A DNA stretch of 7,410 nt. It comes from a virus. Lineage: Duplodnaviria; Heunggongvirae; Uroviricota; Caudoviricetes. Position 1 is the stretch's first letter. Every line of letters starts with the position of its first letter. Of this stretch, positions 1 to 7,410 are shown in pieces. Location of the stretch: positions 1 to 7,410 of IMG/VR virus record IMGVR_UViG_2600254985_000002; one strand, given 5' to 3'. The translations under genes were made by a program, and so were the position numbers. The notes under the pieces were generated by a model. The model saw only the letters and a program-made list of their open reading frames with translations, was not told the DNA's origin and ran no database searches.

Positions 1-255
1 AAAGATGACGCTATAAGAGAAAAATTAAATAACGAACAACCCAAAACAACGGATGAAATAGAAAAACTTCGTCTTAAACAAGAACAAGTTTCTAAAAATA
101 TTATTAGAACTCAATCATTAGAAGAAGCGATTGTAACAGCTAATGAAATCGAACGCAAACTTAAAGAATGTGATTTAAAAAGCATGACAGACGAAGAAGC
201 CTTGAAAGAAATTGCTGATTTAGCTAATGAAATTGATTTATCTTGGTTCAAATAA
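1..255 (+). CDS. 3' end of a hypothetical protein (5'-truncated by window edge)
   Basis: Frame 1 is open from base 1 to TAA at 253..255 (…ADLANEIDLSWFK*). Charged, helical-looking C-terminus. Absent from the ORF track because it has no start codon in the window. No recognisable motif. Confidence 0.45.
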   Translation, partial: KDDAIREKLNNEQPKTTDEIEKLRLKQEQVSKNIIRTQSLEEAIVTANEIERKLKECDLKSMTDEEALKEIADLANEIDLSWFK

Positions 256-319
256 TATCTAAACGATTAAATCAAGATAGTATAAACAAATTCATAAAAG
301 AAAAAAATGGAATTAAGTA

Positions 320-348
320 TTGACAAATATAAAATAATTTGATATCAT
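320..348 (+). promoter_or_regulatory. sigma-A type promoter: TTGACA (320..325), 17-bp spacer, TGaTATCAT extended -10 (340..348)
   Basis: Read directly: consensus -35, 17-bp spacer, TG-extended -10, then GGAG RBS (361..364) and ATG at 371. Nearly identical to the promoter at 7045..7073. Confidence 0.6.
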
Positions 349-370
349 GATATAAGAAAAGGAGAAATAA

Positions 371-592
371 ATGAAAATTTACTATGTGGCACTAACAACT
401 GATAAAGACACAGTGGCTAAAAATTATAGCGGAAAACGATTATCTCTTTATACAAAAAAACACGAAGCTATTAAGACTTGTGTTTTATTAAATTATCAAT
501 GGGAGCTATTTTTCGGAAATGGAGCAAAAGAAGAAAAACCGTTCAAAGTTTATTGCGTAGAATCAGAGCCAATGGAGGTAACTAGTGACTAA
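371..592 (+). CDS. hypothetical small protein (73 aa)
   Basis: ATG start with GGAG RBS 7 nt upstream, immediately downstream of a consensus promoter. No recognisable motif. Confidence 0.6.
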   Translation: MKIYYVALTTDKDTVAKNYSGKRLSLYTKKHEAIKTCVLLNYQWELFFGNGAKEEKPFKVYCVESEPMEVTSD

Positions 593-660
593 ATTGAGAA
601 AAAACCAGGTGGCATTAGTCGTAGGATTAAAAAAAGATTATAAATTGAGAGGCATGAAAA

Positions 661-1554
661 TTGAATTTATTTGATAAAGTACAGACAGCTAAGCACTTAA
701 AAGAGCGTGAAGACTTAATAAATTTAAAAGATGACTGGCTTATTGATACGTTAATGCCAAGTTCACAAGCTGGAATACTTGTAGCTCCATTTAAGTCATT
801 TAAAAGCTCTCTAGCAATGCACATGGCTTTAATGGTATCGCAAGGGTTACCTTTTTTTGGTTATGATACAAAGCGAAGCAAGACACTATACATAGACAAT
901 GAAGATACTGACAGAGAGTTAAACAAAAGGCTTAGAAATAAAGATAATGCACCAGAAGACTTACATTTTTTGACAGGTGGAGAGTTTATGCTTGATGATT
1001 CGCACCACATGAACTTATTATATGAATACATTAAAGAAAATGATATAAAATTCGTGATCTTGGATAATTTAATGACAATGCTAAGAAATGGAGACATTAT
1101 CTACGGTAAAGACTTTGAACCAATGCTTAGGAGAATTACACGCTTAAAGTTACTTTTCCAAGACGTTACTTTCTTGTTAGTAGCTCATGCAAACAAATCA
1201 GCTTATGCAAACTCAATGGACGATAAAGCATATATGGTAAAGCCTAGTGACGCCTTGGGTGGTTCTACTCTAACAGCATGGGCAGAATTTATGTTAATGT
1301 TAAGCCCTAAACGTGGCAAGCATAACGACTTCTCTAAGTTATCAGTCAAAGCGCGTGGATATCAGTTTGACGATGATTTAAACTTTTCATACGTTGATTC
1401 AGTATTCACTTGCGTCAATAAATCAAAAAAAGAACCAGATAGCGAACTAGTGGAAAAAGTAAAGGCTGAAACTCCAATCGAAACGACGAAAGAATCGGCA
1501 CAGGCTTTCTTAGACTTAGCTAAAGAGAAAGGAAAAGTAACAGAAAATGAGTGA
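661..1554 (+). CDS. RecA-like P-loop NTPase (AAA_25 / DnaB-C-terminal-like); putative replication or recombination ATPase
   Basis: 297-aa ORF with TTG start and GAGAGG RBS (646..651). P-loop-like VAPFKSFKSS, Walker B-like KFVILDNL, and FLLVAHANK motif, in the spacing typical of RecA-fold helicase/recombinase cores. Family call is from motif layout by eye, not a search. Confidence 0.6.
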   Translation: MNLFDKVQTAKHLKEREDLINLKDDWLIDTLMPSSQAGILVAPFKSFKSSLAMHMALMVSQGLPFFGYDTKRSKTLYIDNEDTDRELNKRLRNKDNAPEDLHFLTGGEFMLDDSHHMNLLYEYIKENDIKFVILDNLMTMLRNGDIIYGKDFEPMLRRITRLKLLFQDVTFLLVAHANKSAYANSMDDKAYMVKPSDALGGSTLTAWAEFMLMLSPKRGKHNDFSKLSVKARGYQFDDDLNFSYVDSVFTCVNKSKKEPDSELVEKVKAETPIETTKESAQAFLDLAKEKGKVTENE

Positions 1555-1741
1555 TAAAAAATACGTTGTTTATTACCATGAAAAAGTAAATGAATACTTC
1601 TATGACTATTATTCAAGGTTTAACATGAATGAACAATATTCAAAACCTGTTTTATACAGTGATGACTTTAAATTAATAGAGAGAGCAAAAAATGAACTCA
1701 ATGAACGACTACAAGAACAAAGCTATTATTTTACACGCTGA
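1547..1741 (+). CDS. hypothetical small protein (64 aa)
   Basis: ATG overlaps the stop of the upstream gene (ATGAGTGA). Tyr-rich sequence, weak RBS. Shares 50 nt with the next ORF. Confidence 0.4.
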   Translation: MSDKKYVVYYHEKVNEYFYDYYSRFNMNEQYSKPVLYSDDFKLIERAKNELNERLQEQSYYFTR

Positions 1742-1958
1742 AGTGTACGGTTGGTTATATCGTGCATTAGATGAAATGGTAAAAGCAGAATGGCATAATG
1801 ACGAACTTTTCAAAGTATGGCTTGGACGTGCTGAATTTCTAGTCAGACAGTCGAAAAAATTGCATGCAGCTTGCGAAAATGATTATTCTAAGCGTGCATT
1901 GATTAGGGCATTACAATTAAAAGTAGAAATAAATAAAAAAATATCATCTAATATTTGA
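1692..1958 (+). CDS. hypothetical protein (88 aa; start may be the ATG at 1701)
   Basis: ORF with GAGAG-like RBS; protein-like composition (…AEVYGWLYRALDEMVKAEW…). Its stop TGA (1956..1958) sits inside the -35 of the next promoter. Confidence 0.5.
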   Translation: MNSMNDYKNKAIILHAEVYGWLYRALDEMVKAEWHNDELFKVWLGRAEFLVRQSKKLHAACENDYSKRALIRALQLKVEINKKISSNI

Positions 1959-1983
1959 CAACGATAATTAATTTTGGTATAAT
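1955..1983 (+). promoter_or_regulatory. sigma-A type promoter: TTGACA (1955..1960), 17 bp, TGgTATAAT (1975..1983)
   Basis: Perfect consensus -35 and -10 with TG extension, followed by a TATAGAAA element and AAGGAGAA RBS before ATG 2015. Confidence 0.65.
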
Positions 1984-2014
1984 AGTATATATAGAAATAA
2001 AGGAGAACTAACAA

Positions 2015-2401
2015 ATGGTAGTCAAATTAACGCAAAAACAAGCTGATTATCTTGAAACTTTTGGAAACCTTGAAGATGAAATAAACAAAAAACGAGCGCT
2101 TTGTCACATCACTCGTTTTGGTTATGGATACAATTGGATAGGCGGCGATAAATGTCCAAGTAGTGCTTTTGAGTGTTACGAGCAATTGAAAATGGTTGAA
2201 GCTGTCATTAACGGTTATGAAGTTATTGAACCTAAATTTAAGTTTTATAACTTTTCTGATAGTAGCGGAGGAACTGCATTATATTATGCTGGACAGTCTA
2301 AACAATTAACAAAATTCGAGCAAGATGCTCTTGAAGTTAAAGAGGGGAGCGAGGAATATAAAGCTTTGTTAGCTTTAGGTTTCGTTGAAGAAGAAGTATG
2401 A
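2015..2401 (+). CDS. hypothetical protein (128 aa)
   Basis: ATG with strong RBS downstream of a consensus promoter; acidic C-terminus. Stop overlaps the next start (ATGA at 2398..2401). Confidence 0.7.
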   Translation: MVVKLTQKQADYLETFGNLEDEINKKRALCHITRFGYGYNWIGGDKCPSSAFECYEQLKMVEAVINGYEVIEPKFKFYNFSDSSGGTALYYAGQSKQLTKFEQDALEVKEGSEEYKALLALGFVEEEV

Positions 2402-2685
2402 TAACATCTTTTGAATCACTAGCTGAAAGACGATCGATAACTCTTAATTATCACAAAAAGGATAGTCAGCAGTACATCAACAGCTTAAATTACTTTGAAT
2501 ATGCTAGAATGTACTTTGAAAAAAATGGCTTTCCTGATGATAACAGACGAGTTTATCAAAGTGGCAAGCGAAAAGGCCAAAAAGTTAGTTGGTCTGATAA
2601 AGAGGAAAAACAGCAGAAAGACGATATTAGAAAGTTCATATATGAAAAGCAACTACAAAAGTTTAAGGGCAGAAGAAAAAGCTAG
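2398..2685 (+). CDS. hypothetical protein (95 aa)
   Basis: ATGA coupling to the upstream gene supports the start. C-terminal half is Lys/Arg-rich and low-complexity, and it overlaps ORF 2495..2908 in another frame. Confidence 0.45.
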   Translation: MITSFESLAERRSITLNYHKKDSQQYINSLNYFEYARMYFEKNGFPDDNRRVYQSGKRKGQKVSWSDKEEKQQKDDIRKFIYEKQLQKFKGRRKS

Positions 2686-2908
2686 TAAACATTACGCTAG
2701 AGGTGTCAGAAAGCTATCTAAAGAGCTTGAGGAAATGAACGAAACAAAGTATAGGGCAGAGCCTAACGAGTGCTTATATGGCTTGATAAGCGAATTATGG
2801 AGCTATTGGGGTAAAGGTTGGATCCTGCCTATGCTTAAATATAATATTGAAATTACAAGACAAGGCGACGTCTTCATTGTAGAAAGAGGAGTAAATGGAA
2901 ACAATTAA
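2495..2908 (+). CDS. hypothetical protein (true start uncertain: TTG 2495, ATG 2642 or ATG 2735)
   Basis: The 3' part (…ECLYGLISELWSYWGKGWILPMLKYNIEITRQGDVFIVERG…) looks protein-like and its end is coupled to the next gene (ATG 2895 inside the last codons). The 5' part overlaps 2398..2685 by up to 190 nt. Confidence 0.4.
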   Translation: MNMLECTLKKMAFLMITDEFIKVASEKAKKLVGLIKRKNSRKTILESSYMKSNYKSLRAEEKASKHYARGVRKLSKELEEMNETKYRAEPNECLYGLISELWSYWGKGWILPMLKYNIEITRQGDVFIVERGVNGNN

Positions 2909-3191
2909 TATTAAATTTGATGAAAAACAGCTAGAAGAAGTTGTGAAAAAAGTTACTGAAAAACTTAAAAAAGAGAAAGATTCAGATACAGCAAAGGAAA
3001 AAGTGTCAGTAATGTATTTAGAATTTAATGAAGCAAATCATGCAAGCGAGAAAGGTAAACTTTACTTTGGGCATGCTTTTCACACTTTGTCAAAAAAGTA
3101 TGCTTCGGAGTTTTATTTATCTAGTGAATCTGATTTGACAAAAGCCTCAGAGCTTAAAAGCCAAGGTTGGAGAGAAGAGGTTATCGAATGA
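2895..3191 (+). CDS. hypothetical protein (98 aa)
   Basis: ATG with GAGGAG RBS (about 2884..2889). Stop TGA (3189..3191) overlaps the next ATG (3188). No recognisable motif. Confidence 0.6.
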   Translation: METINIKFDEKQLEEVVKKVTEKLKKEKDSDTAKEKVSVMYLEFNEANHASEKGKLYFGHAFHTLSKKYASEFYLSSESDLTKASELKSQGWREEVIE

Positions 3192-3754
3192 GTGTATTTG
3201 AAGAACTAAGCGTTATTAATGTAAATGATAAGAAAAGCAAAAAGAATAATTTAGATTATCTTAGTTGGGCATATGCATGGTCTGAAGTTAAAAAAGTATA
3301 TCCTGAAGCTAACAGTAAAGTTTATGAAAATGAACAAGGGTTAAATTATCACACAGACGGTCGCACAGCATGGGTTAAGGTTGGTATGACTATTGAGGGC
3401 TTGGAGCACATTGAATACTTGCCTGTAATGGACTATCGTAACCAATCTATCCCAGTTGAAAAACTGACTTCTATGGACGTAAATAAAGCCATTCAGCGTG
3501 GACTAGTTAAGGCAATTGCTCGTCATGGTTTAGGGCTATATATTTATGCAAATGAAGATTTACCAGTTCTAACAGAAGAACAAAAAGAGCTTGAAGCAGA
3601 AAAACAACGACTTAGAGAGATTCAGCCACTTATAAAACGAGCTGAACAACTAGGATACCAAAATATTGACAGCTTGAAAAATAAGACTAAAAAAGAAATT
3701 ACCGACATCATGAAGATTTGGTTAGCACAGCAAGAAACAGAAAAAGGGGAATAA
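3188..3754 (+). CDS. putative phage single-strand annealing / recombination protein (Sak3/DUF1071-like)
   Basis: Track ORF begins at 3167, but ATG 3188 has RBS GGAGAGAAGAGG and an ATGA overlap with the upstream stop. Motifs LDYLSWAYAWSEV and AIARHGLGLYIYANEDLP recalled as typical of this SSAP family; position immediately upstream of an SSB-like gene is the classic sak-ssb arrangement. Family assignment is from memory. Confidence 0.5.
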   Translation: MSVFEELSVINVNDKKSKKNNLDYLSWAYAWSEVKKVYPEANSKVYENEQGLNYHTDGRTAWVKVGMTIEGLEHIEYLPVMDYRNQSIPVEKLTSMDVNKAIQRGLVKAIARHGLGLYIYANEDLPVLTEEQKELEAEKQRLREIQPLIKRAEQLGYQNIDSLKNKTKKEITDIMKIWLAQQETEKGE

Positions 3755-3758
3755 TTAA

Positions 3759-4118
3759 ATGGCAATCATCACAGTAACAGCACAAGCGAATGAAAAAAAT
3801 ACACGTACAGTAAGTACAGCAAAAGGCGATAAGAAAATTATTTCAGTCCCATTATTTGAAAAAGAAAAGGGATCTAACGTAAAAGTTGCGTACGGTTCGG
3901 CTTTCTTGCCTGATTTCATTCAATTAGGTGACACAGTAACGGTCAGCGGTCGTGTACAAGCCAAGGAATCAGGAGAATACGTAAATTATAACTTTGTTTT
4001 CCCTACGGTTGAAAAAGTATTTATCACTGATGATAATAGTAGTCAATCACAAGCTAAACAAGACTTATTTGGTGGTTCTGAACCTGTTGAAGTTGATGAA
4101 TCAGAACTTCCTTTCTAG
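3759..4118 (+). CDS. ssb: single-stranded DNA-binding protein (phage SSB-like)
   Basis: 119 aa with strong RBS (AAAGGGGA). Gly/Gln-rich flexible region followed by acidic tail ending DESELPF, matching the SSB C-terminal acidic-tip pattern (D-D-D-I-P-F type). Sits directly after the putative annealing protein. Confidence 0.55.
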   Translation: MAIITVTAQANEKNTRTVSTAKGDKKIISVPLFEKEKGSNVKVAYGSAFLPDFIQLGDTVTVSGRVQAKESGEYVNYNFVFPTVEKVFITDDNSSQSQAKQDLFGGSEPVEVDESELPF

Positions 4119-4130
4119 AAAGGTGGTTAC

Positions 4131-4346
4131 ATGTACACAGAAGAAGAGAGAGAGCAAATTATCGACATCGTGGATAAAATGAGCTTATTAAGACAAGACT
4201 TTGACGGAGCTTTCGCTTGGATCAAGGAAAACGTATCAATGCCATTTGACTTTGACGGAGAACAGCAATTTATATCAGAATTGAAGCAGTTAGTTAAAAT
4301 TAACGCTTTAAAGTTTGGTAAAATATATGAGGGAGTATTAAATTGA
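4131..4346 (+). CDS. hypothetical acidic small protein (71 aa)
   Basis: ATG with AAGGTGG RBS. Stop overlaps the next start. Confidence 0.6.
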   Translation: MYTEEEREQIIDIVDKMSLLRQDFDGAFAWIKENVSMPFDFDGEQQFISELKQLVKINALKFGKIYEGVLN

Positions 4347-4852
4347 CAACATTAAGAGAGCTACACAAAAAACTTAAAATTAAACAAACGCTTGACAACT
4401 ATGTACGCAACACAAATAAAAAATATAAACATAACTTTGTGGCTGATGAAATTCTTGGCGAGGGAATGGCTAAACTGATCGAGCTTAATACACAAGGCAA
4501 ACTTGGACGACATGCACAGCAAATTGCTTATATTAACCATAATTTGAGCTTACAGCGACAAAAGGAACAACTGGAACAAGTTAACGAACGACTTGCTAAA
4601 CGTGCTGAGAAAGCCCAAAAATTGCTTGACACGGAACTTCTGAAAGATAGCTACATCGAAACGCTTGAAATGTTTAGTAAATACCATTCAGCAAAATATA
4701 ATATGTGGGACGAACCAGAAACTCCAACTAAAGTGATTGAGTTCATGGAAAAGAATGGAGTTAAACAAGGTAAATGGCTACGTCCTGAAGGAGTTGACGC
4801 TTGGTTCAAAGAACGAATCATTTGGTTCAAGAATAAATTGAAAGAACAATAA
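4343..4852 (+). CDS. hypothetical protein (169 aa)
   Basis: TTG start with GAGGGAG RBS (4329..4335), overlapping the upstream stop. Protein-like composition with a predicted helical, charged middle region. No diagnostic motif. Confidence 0.6.
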   Translation: MTTLRELHKKLKIKQTLDNYVRNTNKKYKHNFVADEILGEGMAKLIELNTQGKLGRHAQQIAYINHNLSLQRQKEQLEQVNERLAKRAEKAQKLLDTELLKDSYIETLEMFSKYHSAKYNMWDEPETPTKVIEFMEKNGVKQGKWLRPEGVDAWFKERIIWFKNKLKEQ

Positions 4853-4875
4853 TATTAAGAATAAAAACTTTAGGC

Positions 4876-4904
4876 TTGACAGCTTAGAGCTTTTTTGATA
4901 TAAT
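4876..4904 (+). promoter_or_regulatory. sigma-A type promoter: TTGACA (4876..4881), 17 bp, TGaTATAAT (4896..4904)
   Basis: Perfect consensus hexamers with TG extension, then a TATAG element and AAAGGAGG RBS before ATG 4937. Confidence 0.65.
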
Positions 4905-4936
4905 AATACATATAGTTAAAGAAAGGAGGTAATAAA

Positions 4937-5251
4937 ATGATTTTAATACAATGCGTAACCTGTGGGTCTTCAAGTTTCACTAATGGTAAATGTGATTATT
5001 GCGGTAACAAGTACGAAGTAAATGAAGACAAAATATTTTACGGCAATTCGAAAGAAGATGATTCATCATTAGATGAGGATATAACCTTTCAAGAAACTCC
5101 TGCTGGTAAATTAATACTAAAAATCATGATCTATACTTTAATATCTATTGTTTGGTTTGCGATAACTGTATTCATTCCACCGCTATTTATAATAACAATT
5201 ATTTTATTAGTAGTCTATGGGACTTATCGCTTGATAAATAAAAAGAAATAG
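4937..5251 (+). CDS. zinc-ribbon membrane protein (N-terminal CxxC…CxxC, two predicted TM helices)
   Basis: Translation has C-V-T-C … C-D-Y-C near the N-terminus, an acidic linker, two hydrophobic stretches (LILKIMIYTLISIVWFAITVF; PPLFIITIILLVVYGTY), then basic RLINKKK. Own consensus promoter and strong RBS. Confidence 0.7.
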   Translation: MILIQCVTCGSSSFTNGKCDYCGNKYEVNEDKIFYGNSKEDDSSLDEDITFQETPAGKLILKIMIYTLISIVWFAITVFIPPLFIITIILLVVYGTYRLINKKK

Positions 5252-5259
5252 CTTATAAT
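5231..5259 (+). promoter_or_regulatory. sigma-A type promoter: TTGATA (5231..5236), 17 bp, TATAAT (5254..5259)
   Basis: The -35 lies in the last codons of the upstream gene and the -10 just after its stop. Followed by TATAGAATAAA and AGAAAGG RBS before ATG 5289. Confidence 0.55.
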
Positions 5260-5288
5260 AAGGTATAGAATAAACTAGAAAGGTAACA

Positions 5289-5537
5289 ATGAAACAAAAA
5301 TACTTTAATGACAAAAGATATTGCCACTGCTTCGATATACCAATGAGTAATGGTTTAGGAGTTTGCAAAGATTGTAGAGGATACGTGAACATCTGTTATA
5401 GTTGCGATCGCTGTCTACACTGCTGGTTTACATCACAGGTTGAACTATTTACCGAATATGATGAACCTAAGTTGCTGGAACTTATAGAAAACTGGAATAA
5501 ATTTTACCAAACTAGAAAGACAATAAATAATGCTTAG
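5289..5537 (+). CDS. Cys-rich putative zinc-binding small protein (82 aa)
   Basis: Cys/His pattern C-H-C … CKDC … CYSC-x2-C-x-H-C within about 35 residues. Stop overlaps the methyltransferase start (ATGCTTAG). Confidence 0.6.
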   Translation: MKQKYFNDKRYCHCFDIPMSNGLGVCKDCRGYVNICYSCDRCLHCWFTSQVELFTEYDEPKLLELIENWNKFYQTRKTINNA

Positions 5538-6417
5538 TTTAGACGAGAAGAAAATCAGAAAAGGTAAACCTATTGGATTACCATACCAAGGAAGCAAGAA
5601 AAAGATAAGCAAGAAAATAGTTGAGATTATCAAACAGAACTTTGGCACAGACAAGCCGATATACGACATCTTCGGAGGAGGCGGAGCAATTACATCCGAA
5701 TGTATTTTAAATGGCTTAGAAGTATATTATAACGACTTAGACAAGGATATAACCAACGCTTTTGAACGAGTTATCTCTCAAGACCGTGAGTGGATTAAAA
5801 GCCTTATTGTTTCACGTACAGAGTTTACCGAGATTAAGGAGAAAGAAAACAAGACAACAGATGACTTTTTGAAGTTGCTGATTAACTCTTTCGGTAATAA
5901 AAAGAGAGATTATTTATATTCTAAAGAAATTTCAGATTTAAAATATAATCTAGCTAAAGAAATAATTGAAAAGCATGACGTTTTTAGTGGTTATAAACAG
6001 ACCAAAACATATAAGAGATCGATTGAAAAGTACAAACAACTTCAACAACTTCAACGACTTCAACAACTTGAACGACTTGAACAACTTCAACGAATTCAAC
6101 AACTTCAAAAATTAAATAAAATAAAAGCTACAAGCAAAAGTTATCATGCTTTTAGTGATGTTTCTGGAGCTATTCTATATCTTGACCCCCCTTATGAAGG
6201 AAGTCACCAAAAAGGTTATATTAATCAATTCGATAGTCAAGAGTTTTATGACTGGGCATTTGTAATGGCTAAAAATAACATCGTGATAATTTCAAGTTAT
6301 TCAATTTCAGATGAACGCTTTGAAGCTGTATATTCTTTTGACAAAGCGCGCAGCACTCTCCAAAGTGGAAGAAGCAAAAAAGAAAATGAGAAATTATTTA
6401 TGGTTAAAAACAGTTAA
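5530..6417 (+). CDS. N6-adenine DNA methyltransferase, D12/Dam-like (alpha-class motif order)
   Basis: N-terminal G-S-K-K-K-I region, FGGGGA AdoMet-binding motif (5671..5688), NDLDKDI block, and catalytic DPPY (6184..6195) in the order motif I … DPPY. Well-established family hallmarks. Confidence 0.85.
   Translation: MLSLDEKKIRKGKPIGLPYQGSKKKISKKIVEIIKQNFGTDKPIYDIFGGGGAITSECILNGLEVYYNDLDKDITNAFERVISQDREWIKSLIVSRTEFTEIKEKENKTTDDFLKLLINSFGNKKRDYLYSKEISDLKYNLAKEIIEKHDVFSGYKQTKTYKRSIEKYKQLQQLQRLQQLERLEQLQRIQQLQKLNKIKATSKSYHAFSDVSGAILYLDPPYEGSHQKGYINQFDSQEFYDWAFVMAKNNIVIISSYSISDERFEAVYSFDKARSTLQSGRSKKENEKLFMVKNS
6034..6114 (+). repeat. imperfect 9-bp tandem repeat (consensus CAACAACTT, about 9 units) inside the methyltransferase ORF
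   Basis: Units in order: aaacaactt, caacaactt, caacgactt, caacaactt, gaacgactt, gaacaactt, caacgaatt, caacaactt, caaaaatta. In frame, encoding KQL-QQL-QRL-QQL-ERL-EQL-QRI-QQL-QKL. Confidence 0.85.
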
Positions 6418-6420
6418 TAT

Positions 6421-6449
6421 TTGATAAAGTAAAAGCAATTTGATAGAAT
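6421..6449 (+). promoter_or_regulatory. sigma-A type promoter: TTGATA (6421..6426), 17 bp, TGaTAGAAT (6441..6449)
   Basis: Near-consensus hexamers with TG extension, followed by AGAGGAG RBS and ATG 6475. Confidence 0.55.
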
Positions 6450-6474
6450 AGAGTTATAAATAGAGGAGAACAAA

Positions 6475-6594
6475 ATGAAAGATACAGTAAAAACTTTAAT
6501 GATGGTTGCAGGTGTCGGCCTTACACTTATCGCTATCACTTGGATAGGTATGCTTGCGACGTTGCTTATTGCATGGATTGGGGGTAACATCTAA
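6475..6594 (+). CDS. small hydrophobic peptide (39 aa, single predicted TM helix), not in the supplied ORF track
   Basis: ATG 6475 with AGGAG RBS 7 nt upstream and its own promoter. Translation MKDTVKTLMMVAGVGLTLIAITWIGMLATLLIAWIGGNI. Stop TAA (6592..6594) overlaps the next ATG (TAATG). Confidence 0.5.
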   Translation: MKDTVKTLMMVAGVGLTLIAITWIGMLATLLIAWIGGNI

Positions 6595-6902
6595 TGAATT
6601 ATGGTACAAATAAGCACTATGCCAATGAATACGGTATGGAACTTAACGAATACTTTAAACATCATTTTAACTATGAAGAGCTTGCAGGCTGGTATACAAT
6701 GCAGGTATTAAAGTATCTAGTGAGAGCTGGCAAGAAAGAGGGTGAAAGCTACGACAAAGACCGTAACAAGGCTTTAGACTATGCAGGAGAACTTGCTAAC
6801 TTAAGTAACGAGAATAAGCTTACAGAATACACTGCTGACGACATTATGAGCTTTGCACAAGATATAGCTGATGATTTCAAACAATGGAAAGGCGAAGAAT
6901 AA
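6594..6902 (+). CDS. hypothetical phage protein, possibly DUF3310-like
   Basis: 102 aa, translationally coupled to the small peptide gene. Pattern NKHY … VLKYLVRAGKK … DKDRNKALDYAGEL resembles what I recall of DUF3310 phage proteins; family name is from memory. Confidence 0.55.
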   Translation: MNYGTNKHYANEYGMELNEYFKHHFNYEELAGWYTMQVLKYLVRAGKKEGESYDKDRNKALDYAGELANLSNENKLTEYTADDIMSFAQDIADDFKQWKGEE

Positions 6903-6921
6903 TTGAAAATAAAGTTTATGC

Positions 6922-6950
6922 TTGACAGTGTGAACTTTTTTTGATATTAT
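6922..6950 (+). promoter_or_regulatory. sigma-A type promoter: TTGACA (6922..6927), 17 bp, TGaTATTAT (6942..6950)
   Basis: Consensus -35, TG-extended -10, then TATAGAAATTAAGGAG. The ATG at 6978 opens only a 7-codon ORF (MENTMLN*). Confidence 0.5.
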
Positions 6951-7044
6951 AGTCTTATAGAAATTAAGGAGATACAAATGGAAAACACAATGTTAAATTG
7001 ATGAAAGATACTTGGAATTTATTGAAGAGGTCTAAAGTTAATTC

Positions 7045-7073
7045 TTGACAAATATAAAGTAATTTGATAATAT
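7045..7073 (+). promoter_or_regulatory. sigma-A type promoter: TTGACA (7045..7050), 17 bp, TGaTAATAT (7065..7073)
   Basis: Near-identical to 320..348 over the 29 bp from -35 to -10. Followed by TATAGAAAGGGG RBS and ATG 7099. Confidence 0.6.
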
Positions 7074-7098
7074 TGTTTTATAGAAAGGGGATTAAACA

Positions 7099-7353
7099 AT
7101 GGCAACACAAAAAGCTATAAAGGTCGTAGCTTATAACCCTACAACGGAAGAAGAACTACACTTCAGCAGTAAGGCTCAATGTGCTAAGTATTTTGGTCTT
7201 AAAACTAATACAGTCATCAGGTGGCTTGATAATGGTAGACCTGTAATTGAACTGCTGATAGACCTAGATAGAAATCAAGTAGAAATTGAAAAACAAAGCA
7301 AACTAAATGGCTTTGAATTATTTACGATTAAGGAGTGGTTAGATTATGTGTAA
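7099..7353 (+). CDS. hypothetical small protein, possible NUMOD1-like helix-turn-helix DNA-binding module
   Basis: 84 aa. Segment KVVAYNPTTEEELHFSSKAQCAKYFGLKTNTVIRWLDNGRP resembles the short DNA-binding modules found at the C-termini of homing endonucleases. No nuclease motif (GIY-YIG or HNH) seen. Motif call from memory. Confidence 0.55.
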   Translation: MATQKAIKVVAYNPTTEEELHFSSKAQCAKYFGLKTNTVIRWLDNGRPVIELLIDLDRNQVEIEKQSKLNGFELFTIKEWLDYV

Positions 7354-7410
7354 GAAACGCAAATACACAAAAATGGGTGCTTTATATTCAATAGCAAATG
7401 CACGGGATCG
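7346..7410 (+). CDS. 5' end of a hypothetical protein (3'-truncated by window edge)
   Basis: ATG 7346 with AGGAG RBS (7331..7335) about 10 nt upstream, overlapping the upstream stop (ATGTGTAA). Frame open to the window end (MCKKRKYTKMGALYSIANARD…). Confidence 0.35.
   Translation, partial: MCKKRKYTKMGALYSIANARD

Follow-up and report, generated by a model that had tools for sequence, protein, structure and literature searches.

The DNA analysed here is a stretch of 7,410 nucleotides (nt) from a tailed phage, positions 1 to 7,410 of the IMG/VR virus record IMGVR_UViG_2600254985_000002 (hereafter the window), which carries seven promoter-like sites along a co-directional block of genes. By Megablast, the whole window corresponds to the early-gene region in 936-group Lactococcus phages (genus Skunavirus), with 98.7% identity to phage BM22 across 100% of the window length; the 381 records that it matches are all Skunaviruses except one, phage WRP3. 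The early transcription strand is the plus strand of the window, and the annotated genes include those for an AAA-ATPase/'DNA polymerase subunit', Sak, the single-stranded DNA-binding protein SSB, two methylases and SaV.

The original prediction, made from the letters alone, had described seven near-consensus promoters sharing an element TATAG(A/T)A downstream of the −10 hexamer, and had read them as individually expressed gene units, possibly moved between genomes as promoter-gene cassettes. The observation was confirmed in part, with small corrections, and the interpretation is likewise supported in part. A consensus scan recovered all seven sites, at 320, 1955, 4876, 5231, 6421, 6922 and 7045, on the plus strand and with a 17-nt spacer; the hexamers match the consensus at 12 of 12 positions in 1955 and 4876, at 11 in 320, 5231 and 6922, and at 10 in 6421 and 7045, while the TG ahead of the −10 is present at six sites and missing at 5231. 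All seven lie at gene boundaries on the coding strand, and a Shine-Dalgarno sequence (SD) with a start codon follows 22-32 nt past the −10 in every case but 6922, where only a 7-codon remnant is found. In hexamers, spacer, TG and position at gene boundaries, the sites have the sequence features of sigma-A/sigma-70-type extended −10 promoters. The sites, and the elements that follow each of them up to the first open reading frame (ORF, with its length in amino acids, aa), are given below together with their relation to Lactococcus phage sk1, whose RefSeq record (NC_001835) carries seven annotated early promoters, E1-E7, and one middle promoter.

320-348, plus strand: predicted early promoter, TTGACA-17-TATCAT with TG; without an exact TATAG, TATAAGAAA at 351-359.
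Downstream of promoter 320, plus strand: SD AGGAG at 360-364 and ATG at 371 (73-aa ORF, phrog_2541).
1955-1983, plus strand: predicted early promoter, TTGACA-17-TATAAT with TG, 12/12; same sequence as sk1 E5; its −35 contains the stop codon (1956-1958) of the upstream ORF.
1990-2014, plus strand: TATAG at 1990-1994 and A-rich leader, SD AGGAG at 2001-2005; ATG at 2015 (128-aa ORF, phrog_2228).
4876-4904, plus strand: predicted early promoter, TTGACA-17-TATAAT with TG, 12/12; orthologue of sk1 E3.
4911-4936, plus strand: TATAG at 4911-4915 and leader, SD AGGAGG at 4924-4929; ATG at 4937 (104-aa ORF, phrog_1919).
5231-5259, plus strand: predicted early promoter, TTGATA-17-TATAAT, no TG; the upstream ORF ends within it (stop at 5251).
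5264-5288, plus strand: TATAG at 5264-5268 and leader, weak SD AAAGG at 5279-5283; ATG at 5289 (82-aa ORF, phrog_1825).
6421-6449, plus strand: predicted early promoter, TTGATA-17-TAGAAT with TG; without an exact TATAG, has TTATAAATAG.
Downstream of promoter 6421, plus strand: SD GAGGAG at 6463-6468 and ATG at 6475 (39-aa ORF, phrog_1508).
6922-6950, plus strand: predicted early promoter, TTGACA-17-TATTAT with TG; no counterpart found in a scan of sk1 for consensus sites.
6956-7038, plus strand: TATAG at 6956-6960, SD AGGAG at 6967-6971, 7-codon ORF at 6978-7001; gene remnant, its leader shared with one gene-defined promoter family (family 8) of the relatives.
7045-7073, plus strand: predicted early promoter, TTGACA-17-TAATAT with TG; identical to sk1 E6.
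7079-7098, plus strand: TATAG at 7079-7083 and leader, SD AGGGG at 7086-7090; ATG at 7099 (84-aa ORF, phrog_1509).

The identity of sk1 E5 and E6 with window promoters 1955 and 7045 is base for base and extends from the −35 through the start codon, and the E3 orthologue at 4876 reads CATATAG where sk1 has CATCGAG. Promoter 320 stands at the position of sk1 E2, but is of another, E6-like sequence type and paralogous to 7045: the segments 320-348 and 7045-7073 are identical at 26 of 29 positions, one fewer than first counted. The idea of individually expressed units is supported: the sites are real promoter modules, and sk1 has seven annotated early promoters in the corresponding region, three of them identical or orthologous to window sites. 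From the consensus and the sk1 annotation, the seven sites would be active early in infection with unmodified host RNA polymerase.

While comparing the two phages, two further consensus promoters were observed on the minus strand of sk1, at 18990-19025 and 18580-18613, outside the annotated E1-E7. The first is the counterpart of window 5231 (−35 at 19020-19025, 12/12) and the second of window 6421 (−35 at 18608-18613, 11/12 with TG); both are unannotated in sk1, and the annotated E4 (18936-18963) is a far weaker match to the consensus than either of them.

The downstream element, reported for all seven sites, is present as an exact TATAG(A/T)(A/T) at five of them (1990, 4911, 5264, 6956 and 7079) and not at 320 and 6421. 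Its distance, put at 8-15 bp downstream of the −10, also had to be corrected: the motif starts 4-6 nt past the −10 when counted from its last base and 10-12 nt when counted from its first. Counted over the window, TATAGWW is not in excess (9 found, 8.0 expected from the base composition), an outcome which, taken literally, the original prediction had named as one that would speak against the element; yet its position is far from random. Neither 200,000 random placements of seven sites nor 200,000 local shuffles, in which the 25 nt following each −10 were permuted, ever gave five hits at offsets 3-6; three was the maximum.

The same picture was found in relatives. Eighty Skunavirus early regions were fetched from IMG/VR by means of their SSB gene and scanned for promoter-like sites: of the 522 unique sites on the early strand, 163 carry TATAG at an offset of 3-6 nt from the −10, versus 2 of 206 on the opposite strand. 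Among the 172 early-strand occurrences within 20 nt of a −10, only nine are at offsets other than 3-6. When the sites were grouped by downstream gene and spacer sequence (average linkage), about eight promoter lineages resulted, and TATAG occurs in five of them whose spacers are unrelated, namely the E5-type, the E6-type, the E4/5231-type, the E7-type, in which the motif reads TATAGGAGG and overlaps the SD, and the hairpin-type represented by 4876 and 6922. It is absent from the E1, E2 and 320/6421 subtypes. Within gene-defined families T-A-T-A is constant while its flanking bases, as well as the −10 hexamer itself, vary, and the G is sometimes A; the entropy is 0.03-0.19 at T-A-T-A and 0.45-0.63 immediately upstream, in a set that holds only sequences matching TATAG at three or more of five positions and is to that extent biased towards conservation. 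The spacing of the motif is 3-6 nt to the −10, −1 to 11 nt to the SD and 9-22 nt to the start codon. TATAG is tied to the −10, not to the translation signals.

Nor is the motif confined to Skunaviruses. WRP3, of the genus Audreyjarvisvirus, has about 37 strong promoters in its first 50 kb, and in 8 of them TATAG follows the −10 at a distance of 5-8 nt. Scanning bacterial genomes for exact matches to TTGACA-N14-TGnTATAAT-N3-6-TATAGAAA gave at least 120 loci in Clostridia, Bacilli, Mollicutes, Saccharibacteria and others; it was run with no control pattern and so gives offset phase and taxonomic spread, not enrichment. Among the 123 bacterial matches listed, the offset is 3 in 66, 4 in 15, 5 in 36 and 6 in 6, and both of the favoured phases place a T-A on the 6th-7th base after the −10.

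Lactococcal phages from three genera also have a second recurrent start-region or leader motif, (T)ATCAAGTTAAG or ATCAAATAAAG, located 3-6 nt downstream of the −10. It is carried by sk1 E1, E3 and PM (L002), by EP4-EP6 of phage c2 (L090) and by several WRP3 promoters (L091), and appears to be an alternative to TATAGAAATAAAG.

Bacterial promoters usually direct initiation at the 6th-7th base after the −10, on a purine (+1) preceded by a pyrimidine (−1). Since the T-A phase in the bacterial matches listed coincides with this usual start position, TATAG most likely represents the initiation region, and its bases are predicted to open a short A-rich leader; of the two functions originally offered for the element, a shared 5' leader is thus roughly right. 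The motif is most likely a general feature of strong sigma-A promoters of which these phages make heavy use. Besides the selection behind the entropy set and the design of the bacterial scan, several observations weigh against TATAG as the start region. Its offset of 3-6 nt is looser than a strict start-site determinant requires. In the commonest lineage (E5-type, AGTATATATAG) the motif begins 6 nt after the −10, so that its As fall at the 8th and 10th base, past the optimum. Promoters of three lineages (E1, E2 and the 320/6421 subtypes) do without TATAG, and the c2 promoters, like those of sk1 named above, carry the other recurrent motif.

Three other explanations of TATAG were weighed. The motif could have no function of its own and be a hitchhiker on ancestral promoter-leader cassettes that were duplicated and spread by recombination. 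The paralogy of 320 and 7045, and likewise of 4876 and 6922, fits this, as does the fact that the similarity often continues through the leader (TATAGAAATAAAGGAGAA) in three lineages and that the same cassettes precede many different genes. TATAG is nevertheless not mere shared descent, because the five lineages carrying it have unrelated spacers, and unrelated upstream sequences too, and because T-A-T-A is fixed while its flanks vary; the extreme strand and position specificity also speaks against a passive passenger, and we consider this explanation unlikely.

Slightly less likely still is an action in the RNA, either as a processing site that equalises 5' ends or as a stability or translation element. 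A candidate enzyme is RNase Y, for which work in staphylococci and streptococci indicates a preference for cutting A/U-rich RNA after a G. The motif would be present in any read-through transcript that comes from an upstream promoter, and it stands immediately 5' of the A-rich leader and SD; however, its distances to the SD and to the start codon vary far more than that to the −10, and no structure or known RNA family was found for it, Rfam giving no family match anywhere in the window.

The least likely is the other function first proposed, a binding site at which a phage or host regulator would switch all early promoters off, or on, jointly at the start site: the motif is conserved, sits where repressors commonly bind and recurs in several lineages with otherwise unrelated spacers, but it has only 5-7 bp (TATAG itself 5), with no dyad, half-site or direct-repeat partner at fixed spacing in the aligned promoters, its distance to the −10 is variable, its G can be A, three early promoter lineages lack it, and, far from being restricted to genomes that encode one regulator, it is found in the unrelated WRP3 and in many unrelated bacteria, in a phase that fits the start site. 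A reading of TATAG as a second −10 or as a tandem promoter was rejected by eye, there being no −35-like hexamer 16-18 nt upstream.

Two of the promoters are also overlapped by a further element. The original prediction had pointed to sequence shared by 4876 and 6922; GCTTGACAG is indeed common to both, and the T-run differs in length, six against seven. The similarity (GCTTGACAG...CTTTTTTGATAT) consists of bases flanking the −35 that pair with each other, leaving TGAC of TTGACA as the loop:

4868-4896, plus strand: intrinsic-terminator-like hairpin, arms 4868-4876 and 4881-4889, loop TGAC, T6 at 4891-4896; 16 nt past the stop codon at 4852, with 4868-4889 flagged by a terminator scan.
6913-6942, plus strand: intrinsic-terminator-like hairpin, arms 6913-6922 and 6927-6936, loop TGAC, T7 at 6936-6942; 11 nt past the stop codon at 6902.

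In both, the T-run doubles as part of the promoter spacer. On RNA folding, the 4876 hairpin reached −10.0 kcal/mol (z −2.8) and the 6922 hairpin −10.4 kcal/mol (z −3.6, with 0 of 200 shuffles as stable), the latter being strand-specific, with only −2.5 kcal/mol on the opposite strand; no structure was obtained for the other five window promoters. The promoter E3 of sk1 folds similarly (−9.5 kcal/mol, z −3.4). A variant of the E2-type in which the −35 lies in the 5' arm has a suggestive sequence pattern, and sk1 E2 itself folds weakly (−3.5 kcal/mol).

The pairing was further examined by covariation, using every TTGAC(A/G)-N9-T5 site in the 80 loci, picked regardless of pairing, which gave 47 distinct sequences. 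Standard pairs occupy 97.7% of the cells, and 6 of the 10 pairs show changes on both sides; the covariation score was reached by 0 of 500 shuffles, and registers slid by 1-3 columns pair at 29-55%. G-U makes up about a quarter of the hairpin pairs, a proportion that favours an RNA structure on the early transcript over a DNA palindrome for a protein; an operator around the −35 was rejected on these grounds, G-U pairs being mismatches in a DNA palindrome, and also because 6922 folds on one strand only. Stem-loop, U-tract, strand, position after a stop codon and compensatory changes are thus found at both sites, as in intrinsic terminators, and we predict that the two hairpins would end the upstream unit, probably partly, with 3' ends in the U-tract. 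This adds to the case for individually expressed units. On the other side stand the many G-U pairs and the moderate stability, with which termination at the hairpins may be weak.

The idea of promoter-gene cassettes that move as such is supported in part: genes do change behind the same promoter types, but promoter and gene travelling together describes the data less well. In different Skunaviruses the hairpin-type promoter with its leader precedes 10 protein families and the E6/320/6421 type 12, while the E4 type and the E2 type precede six each and E1 and E7 one each. Relatives therefore show presence, absence or replacement of genes between conserved flanks. At promoter 6922 a gene has been lost: pairwise alignment with a relative (locus L084) in which the 62-aa gene behind this promoter is intact revealed, in the window copy, an internal deletion of about 124 nt and a 1-nt frameshift. 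What remains (6978-7038) is the 7-codon ORF running into promoter 7045, with promoter 6922 and its leader intact.

The match to WRP3 is also instructive. Window positions 1914-2066 are about 90% identical to 2501-2652 of locus L004 (WRP3 27237-27388), a patch that comprises the end of the upstream gene, promoter 1955, the leader, which is 100% identical, and the first ~17 codons; across their whole length, the 128-aa proteins behind the promoter in the window and in WRP3 are only 45% identical. The low identity of the rest of the protein suggests a recombination junction. Since promoters stay in place within the genus while genes change, and since the WRP3 patch reaches only ~17 codons into the gene, the data suggest conserved promoter/leader junctions with genes swapped between them as a better description than cassettes moving as one unit.

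Taken together, we propose, with a probability of about 0.7, that the seven sites serve a virulent Lactococcus Skunavirus as early promoters of the host sigma-A, extended −10 type and belong to the E1-E7 set of sk1, with TATAG as the start region, terminators embedded in some of them and the modules serving as gene-exchange junctions. Such a compact intergenic module would begin, in two cases, with a terminator hairpin that has the −35 hexamer as its loop and the promoter spacer as its U-tract; TTGACA-17-TGnTATAAT would then be followed, 3-6 nt after the −10, by T-A-T-A-R and by a 10-20-nt A-rich leader with the SD. TATAG, probably no separate regulator site, would melt easily and present pyrimidine-purine steps over bases 6-8 past the −10, giving transcripts that begin AUAGAAA..., and the embedded terminators would stop, probably partly, upstream read-through right before the new start. 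As the modules are conserved and the small genes between them are not, the modules would act as junctions at which early genes are gained, lost and exchanged.

A broader generalisation can be offered only tentatively: lactococcal phages may use a compact, reusable 'terminator-in-promoter' module, with the −35 in the terminator loop, the U-tract as spacer, a TATAR start motif and a minimal A-rich leader, which would insulate each small early unit and at the same time supply the homologous junctions where genes are shuffled, within Skunaviruses as well as between genera. The terminator/promoter overlap is the most interesting detail of the region. Should the hairpin fold in read-through RNA and end that RNA just where the promoter restarts transcription, there may be a functional coupling between the two signals. 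No description of such an overlap was found in the literature searched, the key older papers lying outside that search, and we do not claim it as new.

That 936-group phages have multiple host-type early promoters is already established and on record since the sk1 genome, alongside which the sk1 early promoters were reportedly described in 1997; to this the main claim adds little. What may be of use is the start-region consensus for lactococcal phage promoters, for the design of expression vectors and for the annotation of hundreds of Skunavirus genomes recorded without promoters; two unannotated consensus promoters have also been identified in the sk1 reference itself. The promoter/leader modules, some of them fused to terminators, would also be fixed points for the exchange of highly variable early genes, among which are targets of abortive-infection systems. 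A full-text literature search found, in the papers it covered, no mapping of the 5' ends of Skunavirus early promoters and no discussion of the TATAG motif: a comparative genomics paper on the 936 group leaves promoters unmentioned, and a ribosome-profiling paper on sk1 gives start sites for the host only.

Three observations outside the promoters can be added. A tandem repeat of the 9-nt unit AACAACTTC occupies window positions 6035-6108 (8.2 copies, 84% matches), within the 295-aa DNA methylase ORF (5530-6417), where it encodes a QQL/QRL/ERL repeat that could be a length-variable linker. The ORFs at 2398-2685 and 2495-2908 overlap by about 190 nt in different frames and are both annotated as coding sequences in BM22 and sk1 (ORF38/ORF39), which could reflect an alternative start, a frameshift or over-annotation. 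Finally, a contig filed under a bacterial genome (L180) consists of Skunavirus DNA, 80-95% identical to sk1 and to the window over most of 8 kb, and is a phage contig binned with a bacterial genome.

Compared with known systems, the window is closest to the early promoters of sk1, with which it shares genus, genome region, strand and architecture; the sk1 record annotates neither the TATAG motif nor the hairpins overlapping promoters of the E3 type. Phage c2 (NC_001706), of another genus, is also a virulent lactococcal phage and likewise has consensus host-type promoters, annotated as EP1-EP6, along a co-directional early block, each with a short leader and SD, but TATAG is missing from the start region in all six, EP4-EP6 having ATCAAGTTAAG or ATCAAATAAAG there. 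From the extended −10 sigma-A promoters of low-GC Gram-positive bacteria, with the same TTGACA, 17-nt spacer, TGnTATAAT and A/T-rich start region, nothing differs fundamentally, except that the phage has unusually many near-perfect copies in 7 kb.

The window hairpins resemble Rho-independent terminators in their 9-10-bp stem, 4-nt loop, U6-7 and position 11-16 nt after a stop codon, and differ from typical ones in sharing bases with the next promoter, the loop lying in the −35 and the U-tract being the spacer. A comparable arrangement is found in WRP3, at the promoter at record position 25658 (L091 25642-25682), where a 10-bp hairpin with TTGACA in its loop precedes T6 (−12.4 kcal/mol, z −3.35); the stem is unrelated to those of the window. 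Morons are promoter-gene-terminator cassettes of lambdoid and other tailed phages. Like them, the units described here consist of small accessory genes that have a promoter of their own, in some cases also a terminator, and that some related phages carry between conserved neighbours and others lack; unlike them, the units stand in line within a virulent phage's early operon, several of them comprise two or more genes, and the conserved part is the promoter/leader junction, not the gene.

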